This document shows positions 31,690 through 64,000 of a stretch of 64,000 bases of DNA, one piece after another. The notes beneath the pieces were generated by a model, which had not been told where the DNA came from, made no database searches, and was given only the letters and a program-made list of their open reading frames with translations. Made by a program: the position numbers and the translations under genes. This DNA comes from Euglena gracilis. Lineage: Eukaryota. The stretch covers positions 24,998,954-25,062,953 of the forward strand of contig CP154954.1 of NCBI GenBank assembly GCA_039621445.1. The letters are read 5' to 3'. How positions within the stretch are numbered: the first letter of the stretch is position 1; each line of letters begins with the position of its first letter.

Positions 31690-32500
31690 TTCTTCCACTT
31701 GCAAACCAGCATTTTTCCACCATAAAACCGCAGCTCGTCTGGTGCTGTGGGGTTTCCAGTGGGTCGTGTCTACCCCCCCTCTTGCAGAATTTCTTTCACT
31801 CTTTCTGAATTTCAAAGGTCTTTTGCCATCCAAAGACCATAACAAATTATTTTTGTGCCCAACCTTGTGGGCTGTCCTTTCCACATACTCTTTCATTAAA
31901 TGCCACAGGCTTATGAGGGGTGTGTGTGGCAAATTCAAAACTTCCACCCATCTTGGGATTTGCCACCCTTTCCTTTGCAATAAAATGAAAACTTTTTCAC
32001 CCACGAAACTGATTTTTCGGTGTTTCCTGGCTAGATCAACTCGCCTGTGGAGGGCCAAAAGCCTCCAACAGATGATGAGTCTGTTTCTCAGCTCTTTCAC
32101 AGAGAGTTCTGAGAGGGGTTTCGATTGTCTGATCATGTTGTCTAGCAAATCAGTGGGGTCCCAGAAAAGGGCATACTTGCAGACATTGGAATTCCACTTT
32201 CTTTTCAATGGAGACAAAAGAGGGGAAAACCTCAATGACCCAAACCCTGGGAGTAACAATGCTGCTGCATATGCATTCGTGCAGTGTTGAGGCTGTTAGA
32301 AGCCAGATCAAGGATCGCCTCAGCCATCCTGTGGACTGTGCAATCCTGCAGGGCACCCCTTTGTTCAACAATTGGCCCACCAAATCCATGAAGGCTGAGT
32401 CATATCTTTTGACATTTCCGAGATTTTTTATGTAAGTGTCGATACTGGACATCAAAAATTCCTGGGATTGTAATATTTGCCTGACACAATCAAGCAGGCC
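31690..32500 (-). pseudogene. DIRS family 2 tyrosine recombinase (main part)
   Basis: KYALFWDP, LALHRRVDLA and WKPHSTRRAA motifs. Confidence 0.85.
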
Positions 32501-32509
32501 AAATTCCAC

Positions 32510-32941
32510 CTTGGGGGGGCATCTCCTCCCCCCAGCAGTTGGTGAACAGACCCCATTGGGGGGGGGTACCAACAAAACTTTGCTGCCTGGCTGCCTGATT
32601 GACATTAATTGGCGCCACCATGATGTTGAAGCCCAGTGGGGTACGATCAACAGACATTTCAGGTCTGGGTTTAGCATCAATCTCTGAACCCACTGGGGAA
32701 TGATGCTCCAGGGGGGGTTTGCATAAACTTGGGGGAGGCCCCTCAAATCTGCCCTTAAGGCATCCACCAGCAAAGCCCCTTGGTGGGGGTATCGACAAAC
32801 AAACTTGGGGAATTTTTTGTTGCTGGGTGCGAAAAACATGTCCACCTCTGGGGACATTTTCATTCTGAAAAATTGAAGAATTTGGTGAAAGATGTTCGGG
32901 TTTAGGGTATAATCCCCTGGGTCCTTTTGCTCTCTGGTCAA
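32510..32941 (-). pseudogene. DIRS family 2 Dam-like MT domain
   Basis: VDMFFA..N.K..KFV.RYP..DAL..VYANPPW..VPHW..SWW. Confidence 0.85.
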
Positions 32942-34350: not shown

Positions 34351-34803
34351 GGTGTAATGTGTCTGGGGATTCCACAGGCCCCATCACTGGGGTCCTTCCC
34401 CCTGGCTGCCCCATCACTGGGGCCCCCTCTGGCTGCCCCATCACTGGGGCTGCAGTTGGCCCTGCCATAGGGCTTCCCAAAGACATGCTTTCCTCCTGTT
34501 TTTGAATAATGGGGGAAGGTCTGTGTCTGTTGTGCGGTGGTACATATAATGCTGGGCTGAATATCTTCTGGGGGGGGCCTGCCTGAGCCAATCTTAGGCC
34601 TCCCCCCCCCCAAGAGCTGATGTGTTGTGGATGGTCTGGATGGTATTGGCCACCATTTGCCTTCAGGGCCCTTTTGGCCTCCAGTGGCACTCTGGCCTGC
34701 TTGGCATCCATTGGCCTTTTCTCCAGGACTTCTCTGTCCTTCTGGATTCCCCATATAGGCCATCATGGCCTGTTTTGGGCATTGTCTTGCTGCTCGTGTG
34801 CGG

Positions 34804-37800
34804 TGTCGGCTGCCGCTGGCGGCGGCAGCCAAAAATTTCGCAAAAATGTCCAAGAAACTCCCGGTAGGAACCACCAAAGCAAGTCAACCACCACGCGAGT
34901 TGAATTGGAACCCCAGCAAAAAATCAAGAAGAATTTGAGAATTCGATTTGAGAATCAGAAGAGAAGAAAAGTTAATTGGAGACTTGAAGAGCAAAAAGAT
35001 CAATTCAAATATCAAAGAAAGCCAAGGCATTCATTTCCACATTATTGTCCCACTCAACACCTGAACTCAAAGGTACTTGCCCACCCTTTCAGTCCCAGGT
35101 TTGTTGTGCTCTGCTGTTTGATCCTAAGTAGGTGGGTTGGTTTTGTCTTTGCTCACCTTTTGATCCAAACGTTTGAAAAGGCAAAACAGTGGAGGCTAAA
35201 AACGATCCTACGCGGGGAGACAGGGGGACCTGGGTCGGAGGGGCACACCTCACCCCCGTCACAGTCTGTTGATTTACTGGAAAACGGGGCCTACTTTCAG
35301 AAAGGCCCTGGCCTGAGCCCACCAGGGCCGCAAAAGGGAAGTGGCCCCGGCGAAAGCGGCAGCCCCCCCGGGCGGCGAGGAGGGTCCTCCAATCCCCCCA
35401 ACGTGGTACGCAGAGGTGGCTTTACTGACTCTGTCAGTGAAGAAAATTTTGATTCTGTTGATGACAAATCAGTAACCCCCAACATGGTTAGCAGAATCTG
35501 TTTCAATCTTGAAGGCGGTTCTTCAACTCTGAATGGTGAAACGGAAACAGATGACCATCCTGTTCTTTTTGAGGATTCTGACAGTGAAAATTTTGAGGAG
35601 GGATTCAACCAGCATGAGCTCAGTCATCTTGAGGGACTTCCTCTGACTGTTTGGCGTCAGAGGATTGAATTACGAGTTGCGCAAATTGACAAAACTGTCC
35701 GAGGTTGGTGTTTTGACCTTGACACCCGTTTTGACAAAAATTCCGTGTCCCTGTTTGGGAGAGACAAGGCTCTGACAAAACAGGTGGTTGACGTGCAATG
35801 TTTATTAAGTGTGGCAAAAGAAGAAATAGGACGATTGGCGGAACAAATAAAAACGTTGGAACTGCAAATCGCTGAAAAGCTGCAGCCCAGTGAAACAAAG
35901 TTGCCAAGTCCAGAAAATTTTGTGTCTGTGAATCTAAATTCTGACATGTCACGAATTTGCAAACATCATCAGTGTCTTCTGAAAAATCTTCCTCAGATTT
36001 TGCTGCACAGCCAAGAAAATTTCGACAGACGAAAAAATCCTGGAGGCCTGCCAAAAACAGCTGGAACAAATTTCAGTTTTTCAGACCAAGTTGGTTTCAC
36101 GATTGGTGGGGTTGGGACTGGTTTGCAAATCCCTGGAACAGCTGGGGGTGGTTTCCACCGCATCAATGGTGGTGGTGAGTTTTATTTCAGCAGGTCTAAC
36201 CACTGACTGACACAGCACAGCACTTTACAGTGTCGAGTAAATTTCAGTGATTTGTTTTGTGATTTTTGTTTTGTACTTCCTTTGTGTGATCTGGTCGGAG
36301 GCAGATGAAAAGTCAGCCAGAAGTTTTAAATCTGGATTTTCAGTTTTCAGAGTTTGGCTTATGAAAAACAGCCAAGTCAAACATTTTTGAATCTGGTTTC
36401 AGGGGTGCAAATTTTTCCCCAGTTGCTTTCCACTTAAATGGAGACGCCCAGCCACGATGCTTGGTATTTTTCTCCTAGTGTTCAGGCAGCCAGATCATAA
36501 ATTTCAGTTTCAGAGTTCTCAGTTTTCGGTTGTCCCGAATGTCATTTTGGGGGGGGGGCACGTTGGCATGTGTCACCATCCCCGACGGGGACAAGTTAGA
36601 CATCTCAGGTTGGATTTTTGTTTGTTTTTTTTCTGGTCCCTTTTGTCACGGGACAGTTTTTCCAGTGAGAAACTTCACCCCCGGACAGGGACACATGTTG
36701 GAGAATCGGCACAGCTTTTGAGATTTTTCAGTCCAGTTTCATTGTGGTTTTCGAGAGTGGCAGCCCAGCAGCCCTGTGGAGGTTTTATCTGGGATTTTTC
36801 CAAATCCTGGGGTCGGGTGGAGACCTCTGATTGACCACTCGAACGAAAAAAGTTTTTGGGAAAGCGCGCAAAGATGGGTTAGAAGGGTGGGGCTAGACCC
36901 AGGCCAGGAATAAACACCCCTGTGGCCACCCATCTAAGAGCTCAGGAAAGGTTTCAATTTTCAGTCCAAGTGGGAACCAAGGTGGATAAACCCAGGAGGA
37001 AAAGACACCCCTGAGGAAGTTCATTTTTGGGCGCATCAGTGGCATCATCATCATTTGGTTCAGTTTTCAGTTAAAAATCTGTTGCTCTGTGGTTTGCACT
37101 TTCTGCGGCATTTTTTCGGCTGTGGAGTTTGCTTAAGGGAGAAAAACTCAGAAGTGGGGGACGCCTCACAATGCAAAACTCTTAAGAGCAATTTTTGCAG
37201 TTTGAAATTTGTTGCAGCAGTTCTGGTGTGACCGATTTGATGGATCAAGATACAGATTTTTTAGTGCCGTTTTGGTTCAGAGTTCAGTGGCATTTTCAGG
37301 TTCGGTGCAGTGAGAAAATTCAGAAATATACCTTCTGTGTTGCCAGTGGTGAATTTTGTGCGTGTGTGTGTGCTTTGTCACGCAGGTTCAAGCAATCAAT
37401 CAAACAGAAGCACCGAAGAGAATCAACGCGAAAGAATCTGAGATTTTCAAGGTTGATTTGTTCAACAAGTTCAAGTTTGTTGACTGGGACAATGATGATT
37501 GCATTGACATTGAATGACATTGAAATCTAAAGCGGACAAGTCATCAAGGAATTTGATTGAATTTATTGAATTCAAAACGTGCAAGAGTTTGCAAAGAATC
37601 AACTTCAAGGACTGGGATGAACATTTCAATGAGATGGAGAAAAGAACAATGACATTTATGAGACCCAAGCAATTGAATCACATGATTACGATTGTCATGA
37701 TCACAATTGTGGATTGTTGTGGAGTTGCAGAATGGTGGGTACATTTATTTTACTCAAGTGCTGTGAAGCGTAATGGCCGACCAAAAGAGCCAGCAGTGGG

Positions 37801-44222: not shown

Positions 44223-46441
44223 TGTACGTCCAAAGCTTTCCCCCTTTTCCTTTTTTGGGACTTTCTGAAAAAGCCTTTCGCTTTCGCCTTGGTGCGCAAC
44301 CTACTTATGGTAGGGAAAAGTCTTTGGAGTAACAAAAAGTGGTTTTCCCCTTTTGTTCCCATTTCCCAAGAGGCAAAGCACCAGGCAAAGACTTCAGAAG
44401 TTTCCGCTGAAGTCACGTTCAGTTGTTTCGAGAGTTTTCCCTCAAACAAAACCAATGGTGAACTTTGAGACGATGACAGTAAAGAATACCACTTGTGCGG
44501 GAAGGAGAGAAAAGTGCTGGGGCAGATCCCAGAAGGGTCTGCCACGATCTTACCAACTGTGGTTTCCACAGTGGTGCGATCGTCACAGAACCCACTCTGA
44601 GATATCTTACATAGCTGGGACGTGCCTGGTACACATCCCCCTCCCAGGGCTACGCCAGTCAGGATATCTGACGCTTCCCTGGTGGGGTTCACTTCTACTC
44701 CATTTGGTGCCTCTCCTTTCCGCACAGTGGCATCCACCCAAATCCCAAAAAAACGCGCAAAAGGTTAGCCGCGTTTCGCGGTTACCTATTAGCCGTTTCG
44801 GCTTAGGTGGGGTGTGAAAAAGCCCAGTGTGGGAAACGGGGCTGGCAGGTTTCCTGTCAAAGTATCCCATCCACCCACTTTGGGTGTGCCAAAGGCACGA
44901 GAGGTTGGTCAAGCGTATTCGCTGAAAACCCCAGGGGAGAGGTGTGGAAGGGGGGGGGGCAGGCTCCTATCCTGGTCATACCCGGATAGGGATCCTAGGC
45001 GGTCATTTCAGCACTAGGAAACAAAAAAATTACTTACAAAACCGACTGCCGGCGACAGGTTTGCGGGGGTGGGGGGAAAGTAGGGAGGACAGGGGGGCTG
45101 GCCTAAGCCAAAACAGAATTTTTGCTGTTTGTCAGCCATAAGGGGCCGTAGGGCCGAAAAGTGACAAATTGGCATGTTATTACGGCGTGCGCGCTGTGTG
45201 CTGTGTGTCATTTAGCGGCTGGCCAGGTTTCCCGGCTGCCAAGGTCTTCACAGCAGCAGCTCCTTCACGACGTGATAAGAGGCGCTTACCTCCTGCAGAC
45301 GGTTTCCGTCCGCACGGCCAATGTTGGAGGGGGGGGGCTCATGGATGCTTCCATCCAGAGCTCGTGACAGACCTGGGTTCGTCCCAAGGCTCATTAGCGG
45401 TTTCCGCTACCAGTGTACGATCCTACAGGGGGGTCCAGGCTCCATGAAGGCGATTAGCTTACATGGGGTCTGGTAATGCCGTTTCGGCATTTTTTCCTTT
45501 CAAACCGCGAGTAATCATGGCGGGAGTCCAGGGGATCTTCCACCAGGACCATTTGGAATTGCTGTGGTGGTGGCCTGTCCACGAGCCAGGTTTCTGGCGA
45601 TTCGTAGTCGAAGTCAGGTGTTACCTAGTCCCGAACCCATCCTTCGGGGACTGTGTGCTTGGTTACACTCGCTCTTTCCATGAGGAACCGCTGCAGCTTC
45701 TCCCAGAATTTCCTGGGCAGAGTGTCTGGCCAGATGAAGTAGTTCATCCGTGGGTGGTTGGCTGACACCTGCGGGGCATTCCCCGGGAGGGGGTCAATGG
45801 GCATGTGATGCGCACATTCCGCGCCCACTGTATGGGGTCGTGATACGACCCCAGGCCAGTGTTTCCAGGGCAACCCGTGGTTTTCGGGTGGCCATTGTGG
45901 CAGGCACCAGCGACCGTTTTGTTCCTAGGTTTTGAACAGAGGGAAAAGCGTCTTTTCACTGTCCACTGTCTCCCAGGGGTAAAGTAATCATACCCCTGCT
46001 TCCTCAACCCCCCAGTTAGAAGCCCCCCGGGGCTACTATTCGGTCACTGTGGGGAAAACCCGAGGGGGGACTTCTAATTGGGTACCCTTTGTCTGAAGGG
46101 AAAACTTCGGCCGGCGTTCGATCCGGGGATCGAACGCCGGCCAAGTTTAAAAAACTGCAAGACGCATTTATTCTAGTTTTGGGTGGATAGGCCATGTTTC
46201 AAGGATACTAGATATCACTTTTGTTCCCAATGTCGACCTTTTTTCGTGGATAATTTTCGAGTTTTTCACCATTTTTCGGAAATGTTTTCGTCAAATTTCC
46301 CCCGGCTTCGCCGGGGGGGGGGGCTGTTATTTGGATTTTTGGCGGGGAACCTGAGGGGGGGGTACATTCGTACCATCTCGCTCCGTGTATGTGTAGTAAA
46401 AATTGTGCGTGTGGGTCAAACTGTCCACGCACTTGGCGCAT
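44223..46441 (-). mobile_element. 3' fragment of a second copy of the chromovirus (LTR 44223-44635, PPT, 3' UTR, end of ORF C)
   Basis: Reverse-complement homology to ~29550-31686, with an unrelated insert at ~46006-46360. Confidence 0.9.
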
Positions 46442-47672: not shown

Positions 47673-50000
47673 TTACAGACAATACGGCTGGTGTATGGTG
47701 TTGGTTACTTCTGGATATGTGTCGTTGCCTGCATACCGTCCCAAGATTACTTGTCGCGCGATCTCTCGCGCAACAGTTATTGATAGAAGCTGCCATGTGT
47801 CGGCTTCAGTTTTGCGTTTTGACCATGCATTTTGTTGACCGAGGAGAAGTTTCATCAGTGTTGACATTAAGGTTAGCGCTTCTTGGCCTAGGCCGCCATA
47901 GCAGTCAACAACAAATGGAATGCAGGTCCATCCCATCCTCCCACAGGTGACGTCATATTTTGAATGTTTTTCCTTCTCTTGGCGTTCATACCATTCAGTT
48001 AGTTCAGCTGTGTCACGCAACGGTCTGTACGGTGCTGCTGTGTGTCTCACTGTGATATCCACTGCTCCAGGACCATTGGCGTCAAGTCTGCTGACGAGGA
48101 CATCGCCCGGGCGTGTTCTCTCTGGACCTCCTTGTTCTTTTTTTGCAAGTCCTGGATTGCACCATGTCGCCGCGTGATGCCATTTGAGCTGCAGCATACA
48201 AGGTGATTACCCAGGTTGTCCATTGGCTTTGTGCAGCGTGGGCACGTTGATCCCGTTGGTGGACAAACTGGTGCTCCCAGTGACCACTTTAGAAATCCTT
48301 TGAATTCGGCAGAAGCGACCAATGTTTTCAGTCCAGAGGATGGTGTGACAGAAGCCCAGGCCATTGCGTGGGGCCGCTGTTGGCTTGCGAACCGGACGGC
48401 GTCTTGACCGTGAAGGTTGGAGGATAATACCTTTTGTCGTTGTTTCGCAAAGCATTCACCCCACCACTTCTGTTGAATGTGAGGGCTTTGGGCTTCGTTC
48501 AGGAGTGATACATCCGCAGCCCATGTTTGCGTTGGGGGAGTTCCTTCGAGGACGGAGTTGGCAGAGGACAGGCACTCCGCAGTGTCTTTCGGTACTCCTC
48601 GGTCTGCAAGGCTCAGGGTGCGTCTGCCATTGCTGACAAACGTCACAATGCCGGATATACGTGCTGGGAGACGTTCCCGTGATGGGTCCCGAATTCCGAG
48701 TCCGCCATGACGCACGGGTAGGGTGGCCTGAGCCCATTGGTTGTCGTCGATTGGGGATCCAACAATGTTGCTCATTGTGTTCCTGATTTCTTTGGTCAAC
48801 AGAGCACATGCGTCATTTGCCTGCCCCAGTTCTGTTGCACGCATGAGGTCATTAACTTTGCATGCATCTAGGCAGGTTCGTAAGAGGCAGAACTGAATAT
48901 GGGCTTGCGGCAGGTTCAAATGGGCCCGGCAAGCTTTCTGCACACCTGTTACACGTTCAGCCCACACTTCCCCCGCAAAGCCTCCGCTTTGTGGATGGCA
49001 TACCGGGATTCCCAGGGCCCGTATACCAGAATTAGGGGAGTAGTTCACGATTGGGACTGCACGAAGTGGGCTGTTTTGCGGCATGTGTTGAGGTGTATGC
49101 CTAGTAGCGTCCCCTGTCGTTGAATTTCTGTAATTGCTGCATGTAATTGTGGGAGGGTTCCCAGGTTGTGTCCATCATCCAAATACCACAATTGTAGTGG
49201 CACCACGTCTTGCAAGGACTCGACGAGAGATTGCAACGCCAAGGCGAATCCGGCTGGGCCACAAGGGTCCCCTTGTTGTACGCCAGAGGCACTCCGAAGG
49301 TGTGATGACCCACAAAAGAGCGGGCTGTGTTCGGCGTAGCAACTCTCGAACCAAACGTACGCCTCCGGGCAGCGTTTAGCCACTTCAGCAACGACTGTCT
49401 TTCTTTTTACGCAATTAAAAGCATTGCTGAAATCTACCTTTAACAAAGCCCAGGTACTGTCCTGTTGCATGTGCAGGTGATTTACTTCTTGCTGCAGTCC
49501 CATAGCAATGAGTTCACATGCCCCCTGGACCCCTACACCGCATTGTAGTGGCTGCATTTCTTTAAGGCTGTCCCTGATTTTGGGGTGCCTCATCAAATAT
49601 TTGCCCACCAATTGCGCAGGCATTCCCCAGCTGCAATTGGTCGCGTGCCATCCTTCTTTGGGTCAGGAATGGGGTTGGTATTGCCAAGCTCATCAAGGTT
49701 TTCGCTTGGATTGCAGGGTTTTCGAAGAGGAGTCAAACGGGCACCAGCGAAAATCCATGCCGCAGAGTTGTGAATTCCGTTTGTCAAACATGTTCGGACG
49801 AATTGGTCCAAAATTGTGAGGAGCTGTTCTGATTGTGTCCCCAGGGGATCAGAGAGCATGTCTTTTAGATGATCTGGACGAAGTCCAGACGGTCCTGGTG
49901 AGGACTCCTTCGGGAAAGACATGACTGCTTTCCGTATTTCAATTAGGCGCTCCCTGGTTGCATCTTCAAAGAGATCACGCGAACACGTGTGATATGTCTC
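47673..50000 (-). pseudogene. CRE-clade non-LTR retrotransposon ORF (RT + CCHC finger + restriction-like endonuclease), 5'-truncated and frameshifted
   Basis: SSPGPSGLRPDHLK, RPIAAGE, VDFSNAFN, GVQQGDP, WYLDDG, LPVRHGGLG, CPRC..H...C, RHGAI, RPGDV..VDIT and PFVVDCYGGLG motifs. Confidence 0.9.
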
Positions 50001-50039
50001 GCTAATTCCCATAGGATCTGCCACGATCGTCATGCTGTG

Positions 50040-50467
50040 TTCATCACAGCCGTCAGATTGTGACGGATCCAGACTCTGCAGGTTTCCTACAGAGCTGGGA
50101 TCGTGCCTGGTACACAACCCCCTCCCAGGGCTATGCCAGATTTCCTTCTTGGACCAGGTCATCCCAGGTCCCGTCCGGATATCGGACACAGTCCTGTTCG
50201 GGTTTCTGCTTTCCAGAACACGGATCTCTTTTCTCCACAGGGGCGCAACCCAAGAACCCGAAAACGCGCAAAAGTTTACCGCTTATCGCGGTTACCTATT
50301 AGCCGTTTCGGCTTAGGTGGAGTGTGAAAAAGCCCAGTGTGGGAAACGGGGCTGGCAGGTTTCCTGTCAAAGTATCCCATCCACCCACTTTGGGTGTGCC
50401 AAAGGCACGAGAGGTTGGTCAAGCGTATTCGCTGAAAACCCCAGGGGAGAGGTGTGGAAGGGGGGGC
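50040..50467 (-). mobile_element. Third fragment of the chromovirus family (partial LTR, PPT, 3' UTR)
   Basis: GTGCCTGGTACACA-ACCCCCTCCC LTR/PPT junction. 50287-50467 is almost identical to 44777-44957. Confidence 0.85.
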
Positions 50468-50779
50468 GAGGGGGGTACTGGGTAGTCGACCGACTAGTCT
50501 GTCGACTACCCAGTTGCCCTACCGACTAGTCGACCGACTAGTCGGTCGACTAGTTGGTACAAGGGGGGGGGGTACTGGCTATGGGAGCAACTGGCTAGTC
50601 CTAGTCGGTCGAGTAGTCGGTCGACTAGTCGACCGACTAGCCACTCTAATGTACCAAAAGGGGGGGGGGGTCACCGACCTTTTAAGCCCCCCCCCAACAT
50701 TGATTTGACTTGCTTTGAACTAGAATCTCAAAGAAAGCACGTCTAAAGCCTTCAAAGTTGTCAAAAAACATCCCTTTTG

Positions 50780-52000
50780 TTGCCAAAACGGTTCAGCAAC
50801 ACAAGGGATTTTGTTATTTTGGGGCCCTGGGACAGTTGAGCAACAGAAGGGATTGGCTTCCAAAACGGTTCGGCAACACAAGGGATTTTGTTATTTTGGG
50901 GCCCTGGGACAGTTGAGCAACAGAAGGGATTGGCTTCCAAAACGGTTCGGCAACACAAGGGCTTTTGTTATTTTGGGGCCCTGGGACAGTTGAGCAGCAG
51001 AAGGGATTGGCTTCCAAAACGGTTCGGCAACACAAGGGATTTTGTTATTTTGGGGCCCTGGGACAGTTGAGCAACAGAAGGGATTCGCTTCCAAAGCGGT
51101 TCGGCAACACAAGGGATTTTGTTATTTTGGGGCCCTGGGACAGTTGAGCAACAGAAGGGATTGGCTTCCAAAACGGTTCGGCAACACAAGGTATTTTGTT
51201 ATTTTGGGGCCCTGGGACAGTTGAGCAGCAGAAGGAATTGGCTTCCAAAACGGTTCGGCAACACAAGGGATTTTGTTATTTTGGGGCCCTGGGAGAACGG
51301 TTCGGCGACACAAGGGATTTTGTTATTTTGGGGCCCTGGGACAGTTGAGCAGCAGAAGGGATTTGCTTCCAAACTGTTCGGCAACACAAGGGATTTTGTT
51401 ATTTTGGGGCCCTGGGACAGTTCAGCAGTAGAAGGGATTGGCTTCCAAAACGGTTCGGCAACACAAGGGATTTTGTTATTTTGGGGCCCTGGGACAGTTG
51501 AGCAACAGAAGGGATTGGCTTCCAAAGCGGTTCGGCAACACAAGGGATTTTGTTTTTGGTGCCCTGGGACAGTTGAGCAACAGAAGGGATTGGCTTCCAA
51601 AAGGGTTCGGCAACACAAGGGATTTTGTTATTTTGGGGCCCTGGGACAGTTGAGCAACAGAAGGGATTGGCTTCCAAAATGGTTTGGCAACACAAGCGTT
51701 TTTGTTATTTTGGTGCCCTGGGACAGTTGAGCAACAGAAGGGATTGGCTTCCAAAACGGTTCGGCAACACAAGGGATTTTGTTATTTTGGGGCCCTGGGA
51801 CAGTTGAGCAGCAGAAGGGATTGGCTTCCAAAACGGTTCGGCAACACAAGGGATTTTGTTATTTTGGGGCCCTGGGACAGTTGAGCAACAGAAGGAATTG
51901 GCTTCCAAAACGGTTCGGCGACACAAGGGATTTTGTTATTTTGGGGCCCTGGGACAGTTGAGCAGCAAAAGGAATTCGCTTCCAAAACGGTTCGGCAACA
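50780..52000 (+). repeat. 77-bp tandem repeat array, about 16 units
   Basis: Unit ACAAGGGATTTTGTTATTTTGGGGCCCTGGGACAGTTGAGCAACAGAAGGGATTGGCTTCCAAAACGGTTCGGCAAC, with no spacers. Confidence 0.97.
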
Positions 52001-52004
52001 CTAC

Positions 52005-52114
52005 ACAAAAATCGTCCATGTCACCCGGACACACGGTGTGTCCGGGTTATGGGCGCCGCAGGCGCCCATAACCCGGACACACCGTGTGTCCGGGTTACAA
52101 TGGACGATTTTTGT
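52005..52114. repeat. ~110-nt palindrome (perfect 35-bp inner stem, GCA loop, 15-bp outer stem)
   Basis: 52023-52057 pairs with 52061-52095 and 52005-52019 pairs with 52100-52114. Each arm is itself palindromic. Confidence 0.95.
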
Positions 52115-52502
52115 CTATATCCGTTGACTAAGAGGCCCAAGACACACACTGTGTCTCGTGGAACTTAGCCACGCAATGTCTACCCCGTATTTTTTTGCAA
52201 TTTTTTGTCAAATTTTCAGTTCACGAGGACACACACTGTGTCTCGTGGACTGCCAGTCCACGAGACACAGTGTGTGTCCCCGTGGACTGGGACACACACT
52301 GTGTCTCGTGGACTGGCAGTCCACGAGACACAGTGTGTGTCCTCGTGAACTGAAAAAAATCAAGAATTCCCACTGGTCCGACCAACAAGTGCCCCCTAAT
52401 AACTTGGCCTTTCGGCAACTTTTGGCTTAGAGCATAAAGGTTTCTCGTGGACAAGTTTCACCACATTCCACTACCTGTCCTTGCAGTTTTTTCTTTCGAA
52501 AA

Positions 52503-53975
52503 ATGAAGAAGACCGCAAACAGTGTGGACCGCATGCTCCCCCGACCCCCGAAACCAGATGAATTTGTTGCTACACTGGAAAAGTATTTGGTCGATTTGCA
52601 GAAGGGCCCTGCTGTTGACCCAATACACGGTACGTTGTTGGCCAACGTGTTGGAGGAGAAGCCAAAAGGGACCGCAAAGGCTGAGCGTGTAGCTGTTACA
52701 CGCCTGTTGGAGTTCCAGCAGATGTGTAAACATCTGAACGCTCAGTATGAGGACCTGGATGGCTTTTTTTCCGCATGGGCTGGTTGGGTCATTGACCCCA
52801 GATATTTGTTTGATGAGGCTACCCTCATCAATCAAGCTGAGCAACAACGCCGGGCACAGTGTGGCACCACATTCAAATTCGAGACATACCTGCCTTCTAC
52901 TGTCCGAGGTCATTTCAACTCTCTCGCACGGGTGTTCACATCTGTTGACCCGGACGGCACTCTGGTTCCATCTTCCAAAAAACAGTTTCCGCAACTGAAC
53001 CGCCTCATGACGTCGGCTCTGACGCGAGAGAGTTCCCGGAAAGCTGTGGGTACGGCTGCCCACCCACCTGTGGAAGTTCTTCAGGACGAGGAACTTCCTA
53101 CCGTGCTGGCTTCCGTGGATTGGCGCAAGCCTTTTGAGAGCCAACGTGCAAACATCCTCATTTTGGCGTACAGCACGGGGTACCGAAGTGAGGTTTTGAG
53201 GCGGTTGGAAGTGGGCTCTTTTGTGGAAACGCGGACCGAAGATGGAAAACGAATGCTCCAATGCAGCGTTGGGACCATGAAGAATCACTCTTCAACGTTG
53301 GAGACCACTGATGTCGCCCTCCTTCAGCAATTGATTGTTGAAGGGTCGGACCCTGCAACGTGTCCCATCAGAGCATTCGACAGACAGGTTGCCTTGGTTT
53401 CCGCCTCGCCACCCGGCCTCCGTGGAAATTGGCTCTTCCGCTCGTGCAAGCCCCTGGCAAGGACGTTGTCTGAACCTCAGACAACGGATGAGACCTTCAG
53501 AGGTGTGGCCGAGTGGGTGGGTGCGCAGGTGGGCCGGCGTGTAACATTCAAGGATGTTGCACGCCGGGCCGCCATGACTCGACTGGCAAACAACCCCGAT
53601 ATTTCGGCTGACGACGTGGCAAAGCACTTCCACGTGCACCGAAACACCGTGGCTGTTTACCATCGTGCAGGCAAAACGGTACCCATCAAAGCGGCCACAA
53701 TCCTCTCCACCCGGGTGACAAAGCAGGAGAAAAAAAAAGCCACCCCCCCCAAAGTGGAGCATGCGGCCCAACACGACGCTGGTCCCGCCGTACCTGTTGG
53801 TCAGCACGCGACAGGGACAGAGACTGCCGCGCCACCTCCAGTCACTGAAGGGCAAGCAAAATCTGAAGGAGGCGAGCAGCATGAGTATGACAGCATTGCT
53901 CTGCCACAATTCATCTTTCCCCTCCTAACAGACCTTCCGAGCCGAACCGCGAGCCAGCCAAGGATGTCAATCTAG
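52503..53975 (+). CDS. Tyrosine recombinase (Crypton-like), 490 aa, uninterrupted
   Basis: YSTGYRSEVL (R), MKNH (K), CPIRAF, WLFR, DVARR (in the HxxR position), HVHRNTVAVY (H...Y), and a KKEKKK-like basic patch. Confidence 0.8.
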   Translation: MKKTANSVDRMLPRPPKPDEFVATLEKYLVDLQKGPAVDPIHGTLLANVLEEKPKGTAKAERVAVTRLLEFQQMCKHLNAQYEDLDGFFSAWAGWVIDPRYLFDEATLINQAEQQRRAQCGTTFKFETYLPSTVRGHFNSLARVFTSVDPDGTLVPSSKKQFPQLNRLMTSALTRESSRKAVGTAAHPPVEVLQDEELPTVLASVDWRKPFESQRANILILAYSTGYRSEVLRRLEVGSFVETRTEDGKRMLQCSVGTMKNHSSTLETTDVALLQQLIVEGSDPATCPIRAFDRQVALVSASPPGLRGNWLFRSCKPLARTLSEPQTTDETFRGVAEWVGAQVGRRVTFKDVARRAAMTRLANNPDISADDVAKHFHVHRNTVAVYHRAGKTVPIKAATILSTRVTKQEKKKATPPKVEHAAQHDAGPAVPVGQHATGTETAAPPPVTEGQAKSEGGEQHEYDSIALPQFIFPLLTDLPSRTASQPRMSI

Positions 53976-54046
53976 GACATGGGGACGTTCTCACGTATGC
54001 CTCAGCGGTATTATCCAAATGCCTACCTCTGACGCATCACAGTGGC

Positions 54047-54469
54047 ATGGAGGTCATCGTAGATGAGGAGCCCGAGTTCTGCACGCAGCCGTCCCGCAGC
54101 CGTCCTTGGCCGCTGAAACTGGAGCGCGACGATGACGACCTGGCCGTCGAGCGCAACCGCGCTCAGTGGTCCAAGTGGACCATTTTTGGCGCTCCCCCAT
54201 CTGCGGAGCACGCACCGGTGGCCCAGGACATGTCAAACATTCCCTCCCTTTTCCCTGCCGTCTCCTCCTCCCGGGCAAACAAACGCCCTCGTCCTGTCCG
54301 TCCCAATTGTGGGTTTTGTGGGGTCACCGTTCCTTTGAACCCACCCTGTCGTGAGCTAAATGCTGTGCTCTGTGATGCATGTGGGCTGTCGTACCACTGG
54401 AAGTGTGCTAACCTGGTGCGTCCCCCAAAGCATGGGTCCTGGATTTGTGAGTCGTGTGTTGGTCAGTAA
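54047..54469 (+). CDS. PHD-finger protein, 140 aa (possibly the spliced or read-through C-terminus of the YR)
   Basis: CGFC..LCDAC..YHWKC..L..PP..GSWICESC, a C4HC3 pattern with the conserved Trp. Confidence 0.85.
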   Translation: MEVIVDEEPEFCTQPSRSRPWPLKLERDDDDLAVERNRAQWSKWTIFGAPPSAEHAPVAQDMSNIPSLFPAVSSSRANKRPRPVRPNCGFCGVTVPLNPPCRELNAVLCDACGLSYHWKCANLVRPPKHGSWICESCVGQ

Positions 54470-54770
54470 GGCGTAACGCTGCGCTCCTCGTTACGTCTCC
54501 TCGTTGTCTGTCATGCCGTTCCGTGTCCCGACGACCATTGTTCCAATTTTGCGCCAACTGTCTCTCAGCTGTTACAGCTCACGGTTGTCCGGTGACCATC
54601 TTTCCATGCATTGCATTAGATGTAGAACACCTCGCATTTCTGGCAAACACCTTTTATTTTTCAGTCCACGAGACACAGTGTGTGTCCCAGTCCACGGGGA
54701 CACACACTGTGTCTCGTGGACTCAGTCCACGAGACACAGTGTGTGTCTTGGGCCTCAGTCCACGGATATA

Positions 54771-55188
54771 AGGGATTTTGTTATTTTGGGGCCCTGGGAC
54801 AGTTGAGCAACAGAAGGGATTGGCTTCCAAAACGGTTCGGCGACACAAGGGATTTTGTTATTTTGGGGCCCTGGGACAGTTGAGCAACAGAAGGGATTGG
54901 CTTCCGAAACGGTTCGGCAACACAAGGGATTTTGTTTTTTTGGTGCCCTGGGACAGTTGAGCAGCAGAAGGAATTCGCTTCCAAAACGGTTCGGCAACAC
55001 AAGGGATTTTGTTATTTTGGGGCCCTGGGACAGTTGAGCAGCAAAAGGAATTGACTTCCAAAACGGTTCGGCAACACAAGGGATTTGTTGTTTTGGGGCC
55101 CTGGGACAGTTGAGCAACAAAGGAATTGGCTTCCAGAACGGTTCGGTAACACAAGGGATTTTGTTATTTTGGGGCCCTGGGACAGTTG
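54771..55188 (+). repeat. 77-bp tandem repeat array, continuation (about 5.5 units)
   Basis: Same unit and orientation as 50780-52000, resuming essentially in register. Confidence 0.97.
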
Positions 55189-55575
55189 ATCACTAAAAAT
55201 AATGTTTATGGTGCATTTTTCGCTGTTTGAAATATGTTCTACGAAGTTTTAGGCCAAACAAGGAAAATCAGTATTGGGGGGGGCTTAAAAAGTTTGTGAC
55301 CCCCCCCTTTTGGTACATTAGAGTGGCTAGTCGGTCGACTAGTCGACCGACTAGCCAGTTCCCCCCACCGACTAGTCGGTCGGCTAGTAGTCGGTGAACT
55401 AGTCGACCGACTAGTCGGTCGACTACCCAGTACCCCACCCCCCCACTCTAAGTCGTGGAGCCCGTAGTGTTTGCAGTTCTTTGCCCTTAAATCAGATTGA
55501 AGCACAACGCAGTGAATGTACTCACCCTTATGTCCACACCCTTATGCTCTAAGCCGAAAATCCGCACAAGGCCAA

Positions 55576-56240
55576 GCATTGTGGGGGCCTTTGGGCATCG
55601 GACCAGGCGCCTTTGGCGCTCGGTCCCCCCCCCTAAAGTGCCCCCCAGTAACTTTGCCTTATGCCCATATCTCGTTTTCCAGCGCTAGCCGCACGATATG
55701 TTCATGGTTAGGGTCATCCGGATGAACATTTCATACATTGGTTTCTATTCATGAAAAACAGGGTGTATTTCCTATTCAAGAAAATATTCCTTGTTTTTCG
55801 TGAATACCTTTTTGTGAAAAACAGAGCAGATTTTTGTGAATACCCTCACCCCCCGCCCCCTCAAAGTGGCCACCCTCCAGGCAACATGAAACCCCAAAAC
55901 GGCCACTGTAGGGGAGGGGACACTTTGGGGGGGAGGCACTTTTCACTTTCTTTGGCACCTTCGGCGCCAAAAGAAAGTGGCCACTTTGAGGAGGGTAAAC
56001 CAAATTTGCCAAAAGATTTTGGCCACTCTGAGGGGGGGAGACACTTTGAGGGGGTGGGGTGAGGGCAGGATTTTTTCTCAAAAAGTGGAAAAAAAAGTTC
56101 CCCAAATGCCCCAAACCATGGCTTGAAGCACACCAACAAAATACAGGGAAGGCGAGGGGCCTTTCTATTCACAGTTACAGAAAAATCGTGGGCTCTAACC
56201 CGTATACAGGGCGTAAAAAGGGTTTTGCCCACAATTTTTA
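55576..56240 (-). mobile_element. Degenerate remnant of the hairpin end of the YR/PHD family, with a small inverted-repeat insert (~55843-56065)
   Basis: 55576-55760 resembles 61530-61740, and 56100-56240 resembles 61855-62045 with a collapsed hairpin (AAAAATCGTGGGCT.TAACCCGTA...GCCCACAATTTTT). Confidence 0.7.
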
Positions 56241-56638
56241 AATAATCACCCCCCGTTTCGCCACTTTGGCCACGCCTGACCCGTGTTCCGGCGTGCTTTT
56301 GTGGCCCAAAATGGCCATTTTGGGGAGTTTTTGGGGGGGGGCAATTTTTGGTAAAAAAAACCAATTTTTTCCAAAATATCTCGTCAATGAAGCAAAATCA
56401 AAGGAAATGTCCAAACAGCAAAAATGAAGCCCTTGGAACACCCTATCCAACTTTACCATTCCCCCAACTCTTCGTGTAGCCCGAGTTACGGCCATTTCGT
56501 TTGGCCAAAACTTTGGCCCATTTCAGGGGCAATTTTGGGCCGTTTTCGGGGGTCAAAATGCTCATTCAACCCTGTTTGAATTTTGAATGGATTTTTTTTA
56601 GAAAAAATATTCACCATTCATGTTGTTTTTCCCCACAG

Positions 56639-56760
56639 TGTGACATGTCTCAGCACCAATTGGTGCTAACATGCTTCCATGGCCCACGATACTGCACTTT
56701 TTGTAATGAATTTATCTTCGGCCTTACATATCAAGGGTTTGCTTGCACCCAATGCGGCAT
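56639..56760 (+). CDS. Probable host exon encoding most of a C1 (DAG/phorbol-ester-binding) domain
   Basis: HQLVLTCFHGPRYCTFCNEFIFGLTYQGFACTQC follows a TTTTTCCCCACAG acceptor. The donor site is unclear. Confidence 0.65.
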
Positions 56761-57572
56761 TGCTTTCCAAGGGATGCTTGATTGCAATTTCTTGTGTCAT
56801 GTGTTAGAGCAGGAAAAAAATTCCCTAAAAATACACATTCCAGAGATTCGGTATGGCACAAGCCCAACCCCCAACACGTCCCTCAAAAATGGGTTTCAGG
56901 GGCGGCTCCCCTGTGACCCCGTGACCCCGGCAATGGAGCTTGCGCCTCCCGTCACCTTCAAAACGAGTATTGTTCAAGGACCAGGAACCAACCAAATACA
57001 AGCGCAAAGCCCAAATGAAAGGAAGCAACAAACAAGTGATGCAGGAAAAGTGTGGGATTTGGCATACCAAGCCTTCTTGAGTTTCATGAGAACTCATCAA
57101 TGCGTTCCTTGGGGGATGTTGTTTTAGTCCCAAAATCTTTTGCCCACAAATTCATTCATATGTTGTTCTCACACGAACACGAACACAGAAAAATATCCCA
57201 ATTTCCCACCTTTTTTTGCCGTCGACTTACACATGGAGGCTTTGCCTCCCCTGTGACCTCTGTGACCAATCCCCCTGTGACCCCCCCCCCCTGTGACCCC
57301 TCTGTGACCCCAGCCCACCCCCTGCGTTGCTTTTATGAGGAGAACCAGGCAAAGCTCCAGCCAGTGACGTAAAAATGGCAGAATGACAGACAAAAAAGTG
57401 TAGGATTGCTGAAAAATTTCCAGGAAAAATTTCCAGGAAAGATTTCCGCAATTTTTCCATGAAAAGTTAAATTTATTTTTCCAATTGGAAAAATAGGAAC
57501 AATATTCTCCCTTTTCTGTGGGTTTTTGCAATGATTGGTTGGCACATCCGGGCCTTGTCAACTTTAAACGTT

Positions 57573-59280: not shown

Positions 59281-60326
59281 TTTGGACCAGGGGTTAATTG
59301 GGAAGGTGTCACACAGTTTCATTTCTCCTTTGGGTGCCGTTTTAGGCTCCTAGTTCTGGGTGCCTTCTCGTTAGATGATAGAAGTCTTCTAATTTTTTTT
59401 GCTTTCAAACACAACTTTTTGCCATGATTCAGGGCTTTGGATGAGAAAAATGTTCTCTTTTTGAGCCAGACACTGTGCCCCTTCGAAATGGTCCAAAATT
59501 TTCCAACCATGCGGCTTGTGTGACCGCCACCACAAGTGAATTATTCGAGAACTGTGTCCCCCGGCTTCACGTCCGAACTGGCGTCTGAGGAATCACGGCC
59601 GATTTCGCCCCAAATACCCACGTTTGGGACATTTTTTTTGGCGACTTTAGTCCGATTGGTGGCCGATTGAAATTGGTAGATTTCACACGTCTGATTCCAT
59701 GCTGCCCTTCGATCAAAAGCTCTTCTCTTATTTTTTTGGCAATCGTATATTCCAAAAGTTGACATATTGTTCCTGTCATATCTCAACACATGTCATACGT
59801 TTTTTTTTTCAGCTGGAGAAAAGTTGTCATAGCCAAGCACTTTTGACTATTTTTTCTTTTGGTTTATCTTTTTTTTTTTTGTTGGTTGACAGGACAAATG
59901 TCGGCATGTCATTTTAATGACAGCAGACAAATGCGACTTTAGGTCTGTCGGCATACAGAGGGAGAAGGTATCAATCGAAAGCTCTCAACAATACCTTTCG
60001 AACGATACCCACAACTCAACCACACTGCACAGGGCTCTGAAAATCGCCGATCGCATGTTCCGACGCTGATTGCAAATTGTACTGTTCAGCTGCCATGTTG
60101 CCGCTCGATCGAAAGCTCTTCTCAAGGACTTTTCAGCAAATGGCCTCAGATTTCAGCCATGCTGCAATGTACTCTTATTTCAGAAACTACTCAAAATTTG
60201 CAAAGTGAAATTATTGCCCAATTTGCTCAGATATGCTTACCACATGCGTGCAAACCATTTTGGACACTTTCTGGCACTTTTTATTCTTTATCCTGGGCAG
60301 AGCAATCCCAAAATGCACGCCTTTGT

Positions 60327-62050
60327 TGTAACCATGAATTGAGGCCCGGCGCCTGCCCTGTATTTCGTGGGTGTGAACACGAAATACAGGGCGTTATTTT
60401 CAATTCACGAATACAGGCTGTATTCGTGAATTGGGTATTCACGAAATACGGGCTGTATTTCGTGAATTGGATTTTTTTTGTGTTTAAAACAGTTTCTGAA
60501 ACTAGAAACCTCGTTGCATCACATGATCCGAAGCGATTCAGAAAAAAACCAAATGCACAAAGCAAAAGAAAATTGAATGGCATATCCAGGGTGAGAAACG
60601 AAGGCGGTGCACAACCAGTGCAACGTCAGACAGCAAAGTGCTGTGGATTAACGCGGGGAAAGCTAACGTGGTTTGCACGAATGACACACCCATGACCCAT
60701 GTTTGGGCTCATGGCATAAATTCACACAACGCCAGTGGTATGAAAGGGAACAAACATCACACCGCACGCGGTTCATGTCACGACACGGGGAGCGAGGGGG
60801 AACGACCACACCACATCTGGCACACATGGGGGCGGCTGACACAAGGCGGCGTTTTTTGGAGGGAGGGGCATTGGAATTTGTGGACACAGAAACGGCAGGA
60901 AACACAGATGGCAAGTCAGAAAGGTCCTGCGCTACTGCTGCTCCCTCCTCCGCCGGAGGTGCCTCCCATGCCAGCCGCCGCCCCGGAGGATGGTACAAAC
61001 GGGGTTTCTGGCTGAGAAGTGGCGTGCATGCGGGCAAGGGCGTTCAGGTAACCCCTGAACGTGGATGCTTTCAATTGTCGGAATTTGAATGTCTGGCCAC
61101 ATTGGACCCGGCGTTGGTCCTCACATTGCTTGATGACCGCTTGCCCATCAAACAACAGTGGTGGATCAATCAACCAGGCCGCCCACGCACAAAGGAAAGT
61201 GTCCAGTTCGTCGTAGACAGCGCCAAGCGCACTGCACACCTCCTCGAATTCAAGGAGGTGAGCGAATGCGGATTGCTCTGTCCCTTCTGAACCAGATGCT
61301 TTCTTTTTGGTAGCCTCAAACAACAGGTTACCGTGCAGGGGGTCAACAGCAGGTTCTTTCTTTTCTCCCAACCCTGCTTAATGGTGGCCAAAAATTCAGC
61401 AACTTTTGGGGGTTGTGGCAACATTCTGTCCATGGTGTTTGCCGCTTTCTTCGACATTTTTCAGAGAACAGACTGAGGAGAAACACAGTGTGAAGGTGCA
61501 AAAATAGCACTTTTTGCTCTAAAACCGAAAAGCATTGTGGGGGCCTTTGCGGGCCTTTGCTCTTGCCGTTGCTCATCCCCATCGGCGCCCCCCCCCAAAG
61601 TGCCCCCAAATAACTTCGCCTTGCACCCAATAACTTGGCTTTACACTCATATCTCGTTTTCCAGGACCAGGGGTTGGTTATCAATGTGTTCCAGGTCATC
61701 TCGACAATGTTTTCACATTTGGGTTTCAATTCACGGAATACAGGGCGTTATTTTCAATTCACGAATACAGGCTGTATTCGTGAATTGGGTATTCACGAAA
61801 TACAGGCTGTATTTTGTGAATAGGATTTTTAGAAAATTTTGGGCAAAAAAGCGCCCCAAAAGTGCCCTAAACCATGGCGTGAAGCACACCCACGAAATAC
61901 AGGGCAGGCGCCGGGCCTCTTAATTCACGGTTACAAAAAAATCGTGGGCTATAACCCGTACACAGGCCGTATAACGGGTCAAGGGCGCCTACGGCGCCCT
62001 TGACCCGTTATACGGCCTGTATACGGGTTATGCCCACGATTTTTATATAG
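60327..62050 (-). mobile_element. Second, diverged and internally deleted YR/PHD element
   Basis: Inverted repeats 60327-60375 / 61885-61935, hairpin 61936-62045, YR N-terminus (MSKKAANTMDRMLP..) at 61000-61457, PHD finger at 60663-60830. The catalytic domain is absent. Confidence 0.85.
60663..60940 (-). pseudogene. PHD-finger coding region of the second YR element
   Basis: CARC..CDVCSLSYHWRCVNL..PKHGSWVCHSC, homologous to 54047..54469. Confidence 0.8.
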
Positions 62051-62599
62051 TTTCAAGGACATCAGACAGGTTGGTACGACGGGGCATTTTTCCACGTATC
62101 CCGGGGGGGCAATTATTTGGGTTTTTGTTGAAAATCCTTGGGGAGGCTTTTATTCAGGGGGGGGGGGCTATTATTTGGGGGGGTTTGACGGGTGGATTTC
62201 GCCGACATTTAACCCCCCTTGGACAAAATCCTAGCTGACTAGTCGACGGTCGTAAAGATGGTGTCTGGCTGGGTCAAATCACCCAGAAATGGTTTGAATA
62301 GTGTCAAATGAGTGCTCTTCACCATATAAGCATCCAGAGGTAAAATTGCAGGGTCCGTGTGTGGGTCAGTGGGGCTCGGTGAGGCTCCAGAAGGGTAAAG
62401 TACCACTGGCAGACAAGGGTGAAAATGAAAATCCCTTACAAATATTTTGCATTTTGAGGGGGCAGAATACTCCCCCCTGACCTGGGCCTCAATTCGGGCT
62501 ATTTTCTGTGCAAATAACGTTGTGAAGTGGCCTCCTCGGGGGGGGGGGTGCCCCCGCACCCCCATCAAATAGCAAACTCCTGTTGTGCTGACAACCCTC

Positions 62600-63240
62600 T
62601 TGGGGGGTCTGACCCCCCCCCCAAAATAAGACCCCGGTCTTATTTTTGGGTCCGTTGCTGGAAACCTCCAGGGGGGGCCTTATTTTGGGGGGGGTCTTAT
62701 TTTTGGATTTTTTCTTGACCGACCTGCTGGGCCCGAAAAAGCACCATTTTTCAGGTTCCCGCGAGTTCTAAATTTTTTCTTTTGGCGCTTCGCGCCATGT
62801 GTAAATTGGTGTAATTTAACATTTACCCTGTTTTTTTTTCCACTTCAAAAATCTGAATTTTTTTGAAATTTCATCATTTTTGTGCATGAAATTGGGGTTT
62901 TGGGTAATTTTTCATGGAAAAATTTCACCGTCCCCGGCGCTTCGCGCCGTCAAGGGGGGTCTTATTTATGGGGGGGTCTTATTTTTGGATTTTTGCTCAA
63001 TCGGACCAGGGGGGTCTTATTTTTTGGGGGGGTCTTATTTTTGGGGGGGGTTTAGTCCTTGTTGTGGGTGATTTTGACTGGGTTGTGCTTGCCGCTATAT
63101 GGAAAATCTCACGGGCAGAGGTAAAATTTTGCTAAAAAGTGGCAAAAACGGATATTTTTATCCAAAACTATTGCAATATTCACCCCGTCTGGGGGAGGCG
63201 TTTTTCGGGGGTTTTATTTTTTGGGGGGGTTTACATTGTA
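62600..63240. repeat. MITE-like cluster of GGGGGGTCTTATTTT repeats
   Basis: About 8 copies of the motif, one inverted copy (AAAATAAGACCCC) and two GGCGCTTCGCGCC mini-hairpins. Confidence 0.5.
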
Positions 63241-63560
63241 AGGTAAATGCCATCAAGTAAAGATGCATCCCATGCCCTCATTCACAAGAAATGTGAAGCT
63301 CAAGCCAACACTGCAGCATATTCACGGTGCCCTGGGTTTAAGGACGAGAATCGACCAAACAAAGAATTCCGAGGGGAGCGGATCACACTTAAGGAGTCCA
63401 CCGCATCTTTCTGGTTTTGGATCTACAAGATTTATTTATTTGTGCGCAGAAACAAGAAATATTTTTGCTTATGCTTCCTCTTTTCCTTTTGTAAGTGGAG
63501 CGTGACTTTGATGAATGACCAAAGCCGATGTCATTTTCAAAGCATCATGGATGGAATGTT

Positions 63561-64000
<440 letters not shown>

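Follow-up and report, generated by a model that had tools for sequence, protein, structure and literature searches.

A 110-nt palindrome at one end of a small tyrosine-recombinase transposon of Euglena gracilis (E1) is an integral, terminal and orientation-specific part of that element and carries two copies of the element-specific core in a conserved frame. With a probability of about one half, this palindrome is an end-specific cis-acting module, namely a site of recombinase assembly or crossover, of a small Crypton-like transposon with non-Crypton ends. The DNA evidence consists of three copies of the palindrome (H1, H2 and H3, belonging to the elements E1, E2 and E3) within a single stretch of 64 kb, here called the window, and all statements on copy number are local to it. 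E1 and its insertion site comprise the following features:

50663-52001, plus strand: left target part of a 77-bp satellite, outside E1
52002-54769, plus strand: E1, complete copy of 2768 bp, with hairpin, terminal inverted regions, recombinase ORF and PHD ORF (satellite register, TRF)
52005-52114, plus strand: H1, the terminal hairpin of E1, made up of foot, class-B site, central palindrome, class-B site and foot
52023-52047, no strand assigned: first class-B site of H1, ACCCG-GACACAC-G-GTGTGTC-CGGGT, self-palindromic (fold and site search)
52048-52070, plus strand: central palindrome of H1, TAT-GGGCGCC-GCA-GGCGCCC-ATA, with the loop G-C-A on the recombinase sense strand
52071-52095, no strand assigned: second class-B site of H1 (fold and site search)
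52116-52352, plus strand: hairpin-proximal terminal inverted region of E1, with the tip TATATCCGTTGACTAAGAGGCCC and class-A sites CACGA-[GACACAC core]-TCGTG (self-BLAST, site search)
52503-53975, plus strand: tyrosine recombinase ORF, 490 aa, with the candidate catalytic residues R228, K260, R354, H379 and Y386 (fold and motif)
54047-54469, plus strand: PHD-finger ORF, 140 aa (Pfam PHD, E = 3.6e-5; score 24.1 bits, cut-off 24)
54662-54769, minus strand: distal terminal inverted region of E1, with the inward tip ATATCCGTGGACTGAGGCCC, 2 nt shorter than the proximal one (self-BLAST)
54770-55237, plus strand: right target part of the 77-bp satellite, outside E1

A sequence-only reading of the window had proposed two 110-nt palindromes, and both are present, H1 at 52005-52114 and H2 at 61936-62045. 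Folded as single-stranded DNA, H1 reaches -68.1 kcal/mol (z = -19.6) and H2 -65.3 kcal/mol (z = -20.6), and in neither case did any of 200 shuffled sequences fold as well. The stem of H1 consists of 35 perfect base pairs closed by a 3-nt loop and that of H2 of 28 bp, one mismatch and 10 bp, which agrees with the previously given lengths of 35 bp perfect and 39 bp with one mismatch; both stems extend on into the feet AAAAATCGT/ACGATTTTT. The frame CTAYAYAAAAATCGT..ACCCG..CGGGT..GGGCGCC-GYA-GGCGCCC..ACGATTTTT, which the two hairpins had been said to have in common, is seen once H2 is read on the minus strand. From the outside inwards along the element, the modules are arranged as outer foot TAYAY-AAAAATCGT, class-B site, GGGCGCC-GYA-GGCGCCC, class-B site and inner foot ACGATTTTT, whereby the central GGGCGCC-NNN-GGCGCCC is invariant in both intact hairpins. 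The foot 9-mer AAAAATCGT occurs six times in the window as compared to 0.94 expected occurrences, and five of these six are hairpin feet. The sixth, at 10130, is isolated in unrelated sequence and was discarded as a hairpin foot.

The arms of H1 had moreover been described as palindromic in themselves. This holds for H1, with the correction that the arms of H2 are sub-palindromic too; a single arm folds with -12.7 kcal/mol in H1 (each arm), while the two arms of H2 reach -6.5 and -5.0 kcal/mol. A branched T or cruciform fold, suggested on the same grounds, is possible, but in single-stranded DNA it is far less stable than the plain hairpin, by 16-27 kcal/mol (H1, -51.8 vs -68.1 kcal/mol; H2, -38.7 vs -66.2 kcal/mol).

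The boundaries of E1 can be read from the interrupted target. The array of 77-bp satellite units breaks off after 52001 (..GGCAACAC) and is taken up again in phase from 54770 onwards (AAGGGATTTT..), and joining the two parts restores one canonical unit exactly. These boundaries were obtained by printing the satellite in register, and TRF independently gives array ends of 52001 and 54770. The insert spans 52002-54769, from TACACAAAAATCGT.. to ..CCACGGATAT, and the palindrome begins 3 nt inside its left edge. Since the array resumes in phase, E1 went in as one unit, hairpin included. At this one insertion site the target shows zero duplication and zero loss. No short direct repeat or common overlap sequence was seen at the E1 junctions, the termini being TACAC.. 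and ..ATAT, and the crossover point is therefore placed by the boundary alone. The hexamer ACACAA is present in the target and in the outer foot and was considered as crossover overlap, but its position misfits a simple crossover model. Within the element, 52116-52352 is an inverted match to 54662-54770 at 90-98% (self-BLAST), and the proximal tip ..TAAGAGGCCC has two extra nucleotides compared to the distal tip ..TGAGGCCC, in E1 and E2 alike.

E1 contains a second palindrome at 52214-52355 (142 nt, 100 nt from H1), which forms a perfect stem of 67 bp with -93 kcal/mol and holds four class-A sites; at the equivalent place E2 has two small 15-bp hairpins, at 60395-60475 and 61750-61830. Long palindromes per se are thus not specific for the terminus, because E1 holds this longer one, and it is the conservation across elements that marks the terminal module. 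Palindromic repeats are found around the insertion site as well: arrays of a 12-nt palindromic unit (TAGTCGACCGAC / TAGTCGGTCGAC) at 50473-50650 and 55328-55436 flank the whole 77-bp satellite island that hosts E1, and this island may itself be a bounded element. A long array of 12-nt period (GTACACGTATAC-like), palindromic throughout and with many sub-threshold Rfam matches to miRNA precursors, occupies 63502-64000 and runs past the end of the window.

The E1 ORF at 52503-53975 is assigned by fold and motif only, and on this basis it is predicted to encode a Cre-fold tyrosine recombinase. An AF2 model computed from a 5-sequence alignment has a mean pLDDT of 64, with most of the core at 70-90, and shows a two-domain Cre-like fold. 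Among PDB structures, those of Cre/lox match this fold best (E = 8.7e-7, probability 1.00), followed by XerA, XerH, the Tn1549 integrase (E = 2.6e-4) and the integron integrase IntI; no telomere resolvase or protelomerase is among the best 30 PDB fold matches listed. R228, K260, R354 and Y386 are invariant in all five family members and H379 is present in four of the five, with the spacing of tyrosine recombinases. Pfam Phage_integrase matches the protein with E values of 0.012-0.17, below the cut-off, and a PDB sequence search with the recombinase profile gave no hits at E values up to 10. A word-index search yielded four relatives, and a profile search against 1.84 billion representatives yielded 367 at E values up to 0.001. 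Among the 150 matches listed of these 367, all have at most 507 aa, many are fragments, and there is no RT-fused form. The recombinase family is real but obscure. One relative bears the name 'Genlisea aurea hypothetical protein' and may be a contaminant; the language-model neighbours of the recombinase include an ALOG/Phage_integrase cluster, which serves as a lead only, and for one member of a neighbour cluster Haptophyta is recorded. A scan of prokaryote genome contigs with a recombinase protein pattern returned 29 matches, none of which was confirmed.

The remaining copies lie downstream of E1, on the opposite strand:

55574-56246, minus strand: E3, a relic in which 0.5-0.7 kb from the hairpin-proximal end of an E2-like element survive (BLAST to 61530-61979 of E2)
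56181-56239, minus strand: H3, a collapsed hairpin (-12.5 kcal/mol, z = -3.4), the third copy, missed by the sequence-only reading
60328-62049, minus strand: E2, deletion derivative, distal end uncertain by about 12 nt (60316-60328; inverted match, tblastn)
60675-60962, minus strand: PHD-finger remnant in E2 (Pfam, tblastn)
60991-61451, minus strand: what is left in E2 of the N-terminal recombinase domain, sharing 48-62% identity with E1; the reading frame changes between residues 27 and 33 (tblastn)
61936-62045, minus strand: H2, the terminal hairpin of E2, with class-B sites at 61954-61979 and 62003-62028 and the loop G-T-A on the minus (sense) strand

Of the two recombinase (YR) elements that had been assumed in the window, E1 does bear a recombinase, whereas E2 lacks the catalytic domain. 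It is a deletion derivative, since tblastn with the E1 proteins recovers from it only recombinase residues 2-27 and 33-156, followed by PHD residues 49-137. The ends of E2 are marked by an inverted match of 60316-60375 to 61946-61885 (90%). While its coding region is dead, its hairpin has a single mismatch, which fits selection for, or recent use of, a cis-acting site. H3 retains both feet and one class-B site, and the other site and the centre are gone, apparently through deletion between the two direct copies of ACCCG..CGGGT. Short-word BLAST of the flanks found no empty sites for E2 and E3 in the window. This leaves a margin of about 12 nt for the distal end of E2, and insertion without target duplication is seen for E1 alone.

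Several observations attach to this region. The 11 nt that adjoin the presumed distal tip of E2 on its outer side (CACGCCTTTGT, within 60316-60327) match the inner foot (CACGATTTTTT) at 8 of 11 positions; they represent either what remains of a foot at the end lacking a hairpin, or target sequence that resembles the foot. Both terminal tips of E2 have GGCGCC adjoining GAGGCCC, and a palindrome at 55596-55625 within the E3 relic, GGACCAGGCGCC-TTT-GGCGCTCGGTCC, has the same hairpin-centre motif GGCGCC. A short motif, in which TCTTATTTTTGG or CTGTTATTTGG comes after a run of G, is scattered around E2 and elsewhere (62100-63240, 46316-46341 and 56032-56078). An ORF between E3 and E2 (56480-57124, plus strand) gives a C1-like zinc-finger match with E = 1.4e-5, just below the cut-off.

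To survey the copies, a covariance model made from the three hairpins was run unfiltered over all 64 kb. Those three are recovered by construction; the model also returns the other palindromes of the element and unrelated arrays, and it reveals no solo hairpin in the 64-kb window. All three hairpins are attached to an element end, and in all three element copies the module occupies the same end, the one that precedes the recombinase in the direction of its sense strand. A hairpin widespread as a solo MITE, or one absent from most recombinase copies, had been named as findings that would refute the proposal of the sequence-only reading; within the window neither is seen, and 3/3 copies are element-linked. 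A DNA pattern of the central hairpin was also found at two loci in actinobacterial contigs, and these are short GC hairpins without feet or nested sites, i.e. unrelated.

The class-B sites, which form the arms, read ACCCG-GACACAC-G/C-GTGTGTC-CGGGT in E1 and ACCCG-TATACAGGCCGTATAA-CGGGT in E2, and the frame ACCCG..CGGGT occurs four times in the window as compared to 0.55 expected occurrences, each time as a hairpin arm (4/4). The class-A sites are subterminal palindromes of the form CACGA-[core]-TCGTG, and within each element their cores agree with those of the class-B sites. Accordingly distributed are the cores themselves: GGACACAC occurs ten times in the window, always in E1 (four times in the hairpin, six times in the terminal regions) and never in E2, and ATACAGGC occurs four times, always in E2 (once in the hairpin, three times subterminally) and never in E1. 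Since the arm cores are common to subterminal repeats outside the hairpin, they point to protein-binding sites. Moreover, the 'variable' stem is in part constrained, because its core tracks the repeats of its own element. Judged from the sequences, such element-specific cores are what would be expected of binding sites co-evolving with an element-encoded protein, and the terminal frame is kept across elements whose proteins are 48-62% identical.

For an analysis of covariation, H1 and H2 were aligned over their full length, with H2 read on the minus strand. Among the 49 pair columns common to the two hairpins, 36 are identical, 12 have changed on both sides and one has changed on one side; 100% of the columns are paired, and neither any of 500 column shuffles nor any slid register reaches the observed values. 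The variable core is 1 nt longer in one hairpin, and this difference is matched on both arms. The covariation check that had been proposed, run here on the copies of the window, thus supports pairing maintained by compensatory change. The accompanying description, 'conserved in structure, not sequence', is correct as to structure, the pairing having been kept through 12 two-sided changes in 49 columns, but overstated as to sequence, as 36 of the 49 pairs are sequence-identical. In terms of an attC-type site (structure kept, sequence free except in the outer boxes), the two intact copies yield 12/49 compensated versus 36/49 identical pairs. Compensatory change cannot separate recognition of a duplex, of a cruciform or of a folded strand, because arms that bind the same protein must change together. 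Recopying of one arm from the other in each cycle is argued against, because it would erase a conserved bulge: a single unpaired A is found 4 nt before the inner ACGATTTTT, on the inner arm, in all three copies (H1, H2, H3).

Further asymmetries are seen with respect to the recombinase sense strand. The loop on this strand is G-C-A in H1 and G-T-A in H2 (2/2 loops), and two of the three mismatches, namely that of H2 and that in the foot of H3, are G.T on this strand. Triloops of the type cGNAg are of high stability. The bulged A, the G-Y-A loop and the sense-strand G.T mismatches, seen in two to three copies, are compatible with strand-specific folding, whereby the orientation counts for loops (2/2) and mismatches (2/3) are far too small for significance.

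These asymmetries bear on the best-surviving alternative, in which the site is an obligatory folded single strand as in integron attC sites; the recombinase would read shape and extrahelical bases and exchange one strand, and replication would resolve the junction. The survival of pairing through the two-sided changes and the matched indel, the bulged A at the same place in all three hairpins, the strand of the G-Y-A and of the G.T mismatches and the duplication-free insertion of E1 would all suit such a process. However, sub-palindromic arms, with cores that recur in repeats outside the hairpin, are not needed for a plain hairpin but are expected for duplex sites bound by dimers, and the large share of sequence-conserved pairs is unlike attC. 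Furthermore, the strand bias comes from too few loops and mismatches to be significant, it is not apparent where single-stranded DNA would come from, and HUH and Rep genes are absent. We consider this alternative unlikely, and we are equally doubtful of the more general notion of a eukaryotic transposon that reads folded DNA (hairpin or cruciform, GNA triloop, marker bulge) rather than duplex sequence. If true, recognition of folded DNA would parallel, in the nucleus, the single-strand recombination of the integron attC or CTX type, and the cruciform would double as a ready Holliday-junction-like substrate that defines one element end. The proposal of the sequence-only reading, i.e. a recombination, resolution or replication site of a single-stranded or hairpin-ended intermediate, is borne out insofar as the hairpin is terminal, element-linked and kept paired; its step to such an intermediate does not follow from the compensatory change, which is equally expected if both arms bind the same protein as duplex DNA.

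A regulatory role is very improbable. As promoter or insulator palindrome, or as a transcribed hairpin feeding small-RNA control, the module would be suitably placed, being upstream of the gene in all copies and about 390 nt before the recombinase start codon, and its long perfect stem is like that of small-RNA precursors, with sub-threshold Rfam matches to miRNA precursors. Those matches are nevertheless far below the gathering scores (42.9 vs 80; 48.8 vs 87), the module is retained in E2, where no gene remains to be regulated, and the exact edge of the insertion falls at the conserved feet. Membership in a known RNA family was rejected, as none of the 51 Rfam matches at E values up to 0.1 reaches its gathering score, and those to the hairpin are of a generic kind, to miRNA precursors.

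There is only a very slim chance that the palindrome serves replication of an extrachromosomal form, be it as an origin or as a self-priming hairpin for copy-out or amplification. A compound hairpin with two sub-palindromes is parvovirus-like in outline, and the three copies are clustered within 10 kb, but no replication initiator, polymerase or HUH gene was found in the 2.8-kb E1, and the strand with G-Y-A has the hairpin at its 5' end instead of its 3' end.

More far-fetched still is a site of the telomere-resolvase type, at which a replicated hairpin-telomere junction would be cut and resealed by the recombinase into the two closed hairpin ends of a linear intermediate. Although a near-perfect palindrome adjoins the tyrosine-recombinase gene and its centre is invariant outside the three loop positions, the enzyme fold matches best to Cre, Xer and the Tn1549 integrase, the palindrome is whole and confined to one end, with none at the other, the insert boundary lies 3 nt outside the palindrome and not at its centre, and this centre is an odd, non-symmetric 3-nt core. 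Just as improbable is an independent foldback or MITE-like element, or a repair by-product, lying beside the recombinase element with no role: long palindromes do arise easily and are abundant in this region, but three independent copies share position and orientation and have cores matching their own element, E1 was inserted together with its hairpin, and the window holds no solo copy.

For the preferred reading, an end-specific site of recombinase assembly or crossover, the following course of events is proposed. A Cre-like recombinase, possibly together with the PHD protein, would bind the element-specific cores in the hairpin and in the subterminal repeats. The element would leave as a circle, in which the palindrome would sit exactly between the two inverted tips, as the centre of dyad symmetry in a large junction. 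At the outer foot, strands would be exchanged with those of the target, giving the E1 join ..GGATAT/TACAC.. with no target duplication. In the circle, an outer spacer of 5-6 nt (TACAC in E1; TATAT plus the next base in E2) would separate the foot from the other tip, the inner mirror of this spacer being 2-3 nt long, and cues for the side to be cut could come from these unequal spacers, from the G-Y-A centre and from the bulged A of the inner arm. No target duplication is made by transposons with a heterology-tolerant recombinase, such as those of the Tn916/Tn1549 type, and by analogy the outcome seen for E1 resembles theirs. New in this architecture are the arm palindromes with an element-specific core that recurs in the subterminal repeats, as well as the oriented bulged A, the G-Y-A centre and the 2-nt difference between the tips.

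To our knowledge, eukaryotic tyrosine-recombinase DNA transposons are rare and mechanistically almost unstudied, with ends that are usually hard to define, and we know of hardly any DNA transposons described from euglenids. E1 offers sharp ends, an exact insertion boundary and a readable site grammar, with two frames around an element-specific core and a compound palindrome at one end; this makes the pairing of protein and site, the place of strand exchange and the recognition of DNA structure testable. Element-specific cores in conserved frames would represent a natural case of co-evolution between recombinase and site and would be of use for the design of orthogonal Cre-like systems.

In the protelomerases or telomere resolvases (TelK, TelN, ResT) the target palindrome adjoins a gene of the tyrosine-recombinase type, but the E1 enzyme is predicted to fold like Cre and Xer, and the palindrome is unbroken, lies at one end only and does not form the boundary of the element. 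The inverted terminal repeat of AAV is a compound terminal hairpin with two small internal palindromes and a longer stem. AAV differs in having the HUH protein Rep and a hairpin at both ends; moreover, the two inner palindromes within a hairpin of E1 or E2 are near-identical to each other, which makes the plain long hairpin the stable fold. Integron attC sites are imperfect palindromes whose outer boxes are conserved while the interior varies; pairing is kept more than sequence in them, and extrahelical bases mark the strand. The predicted E1 and E2 hairpins are likewise palindromes with conserved outer feet, a variable interior and a bulged base, but they belong to a eukaryotic element, are much longer, nearly perfect and mostly sequence-conserved and contain nested palindromic sites; in addition, the palindrome of E1 is a transposon end and not a cassette site. 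Tn916 and Tn1549 have a tyrosine recombinase, imperfect inverted ends and circular excision. E1 is like them in its tyrosine recombinase, its imperfect inverted ends and the lack of target duplication, whereas they are bacterial, large and conjugative, with an N-terminal arm-binding domain, an Xis protein and no terminal compound palindrome.

Eukaryotic tyrosine-recombinase retrotransposons with inverted terminal repeats are represented by the DIRS1 type (PMC6681497). No RT or RNase H domain was found within 52002-54769; E1 thus differs from DIRS elements in being without RT, RNase H and methyltransferase, and the absence of an RT places it outside that group. A tblastn search with the E1 recombinase against the DIRS-like elements of the window found nothing, and hhalign of the family profile against the ORF at 2668-3696 (minus strand), which adjoins a DIRS-like RT, gave no similarity. 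The window itself contains retroelement ORFs at 2668-5062, 32153-34883 and 47676-50282 (all minus strand) with RVT_1 matches. Two of these ORFs also match a Dam-like methyltransferase weakly, and the elements are DIRS-like or DAM-bearing. Terminal repeats of the one at 47676-50282 may be represented by a 197-bp repeat at 44760-44956 and 50270-50466 (97%), and a window RT is 61% identical to the EukProt record EG_transcript_6737, which suggests a euglenid-like host. Elements with DIRS-like RT and Dam have recently been described in Euglena gracilis, and those of the window resemble them (bioRxiv 10.64898/2026.05.21.726589). Fragments of a Ty3/Gypsy-type pol (RT-RNase H, integrase core, Tf2-like SH3 domain) lie at 22411-24480 (plus strand).

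Cryptons come closest in kind. They are characterized by 4-6-bp direct repeats at both termini, without terminal inverted repeats or long direct repeats, and their standard model involves a circular intermediate (PMC3212892). E1 is like a Crypton in being a small DNA element with a tyrosine recombinase as its sole enzyme and no reverse transcriptase; beside the recombinase, only the PHD-finger ORF shows a domain. It differs in its inverted terminal regions of about 110-240 bp and in having no terminal direct repeat, and furthermore in its palindromic site arrays, the 110-bp palindrome at one end and the extra PHD ORF; the Crypton-associated Pfam domains DUF3504 and ALOG were not found in E1 at E values up to 1. 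Cryptons are thus the closest kind, but the ends of E1 are not those by which Cryptons are defined. The literature within our scope, which did not extend to Repbase and subscription journals, contains in its accessible text no recombinase transposon with a terminal compound palindrome and no such elements in Euglena, and E1 is apparently an undescribed small element. E1 represents a new architectural variant among eukaryotic tyrosine-recombinase DNA transposons, in which the terminal compound palindrome is most likely the end-specific recombinase site.
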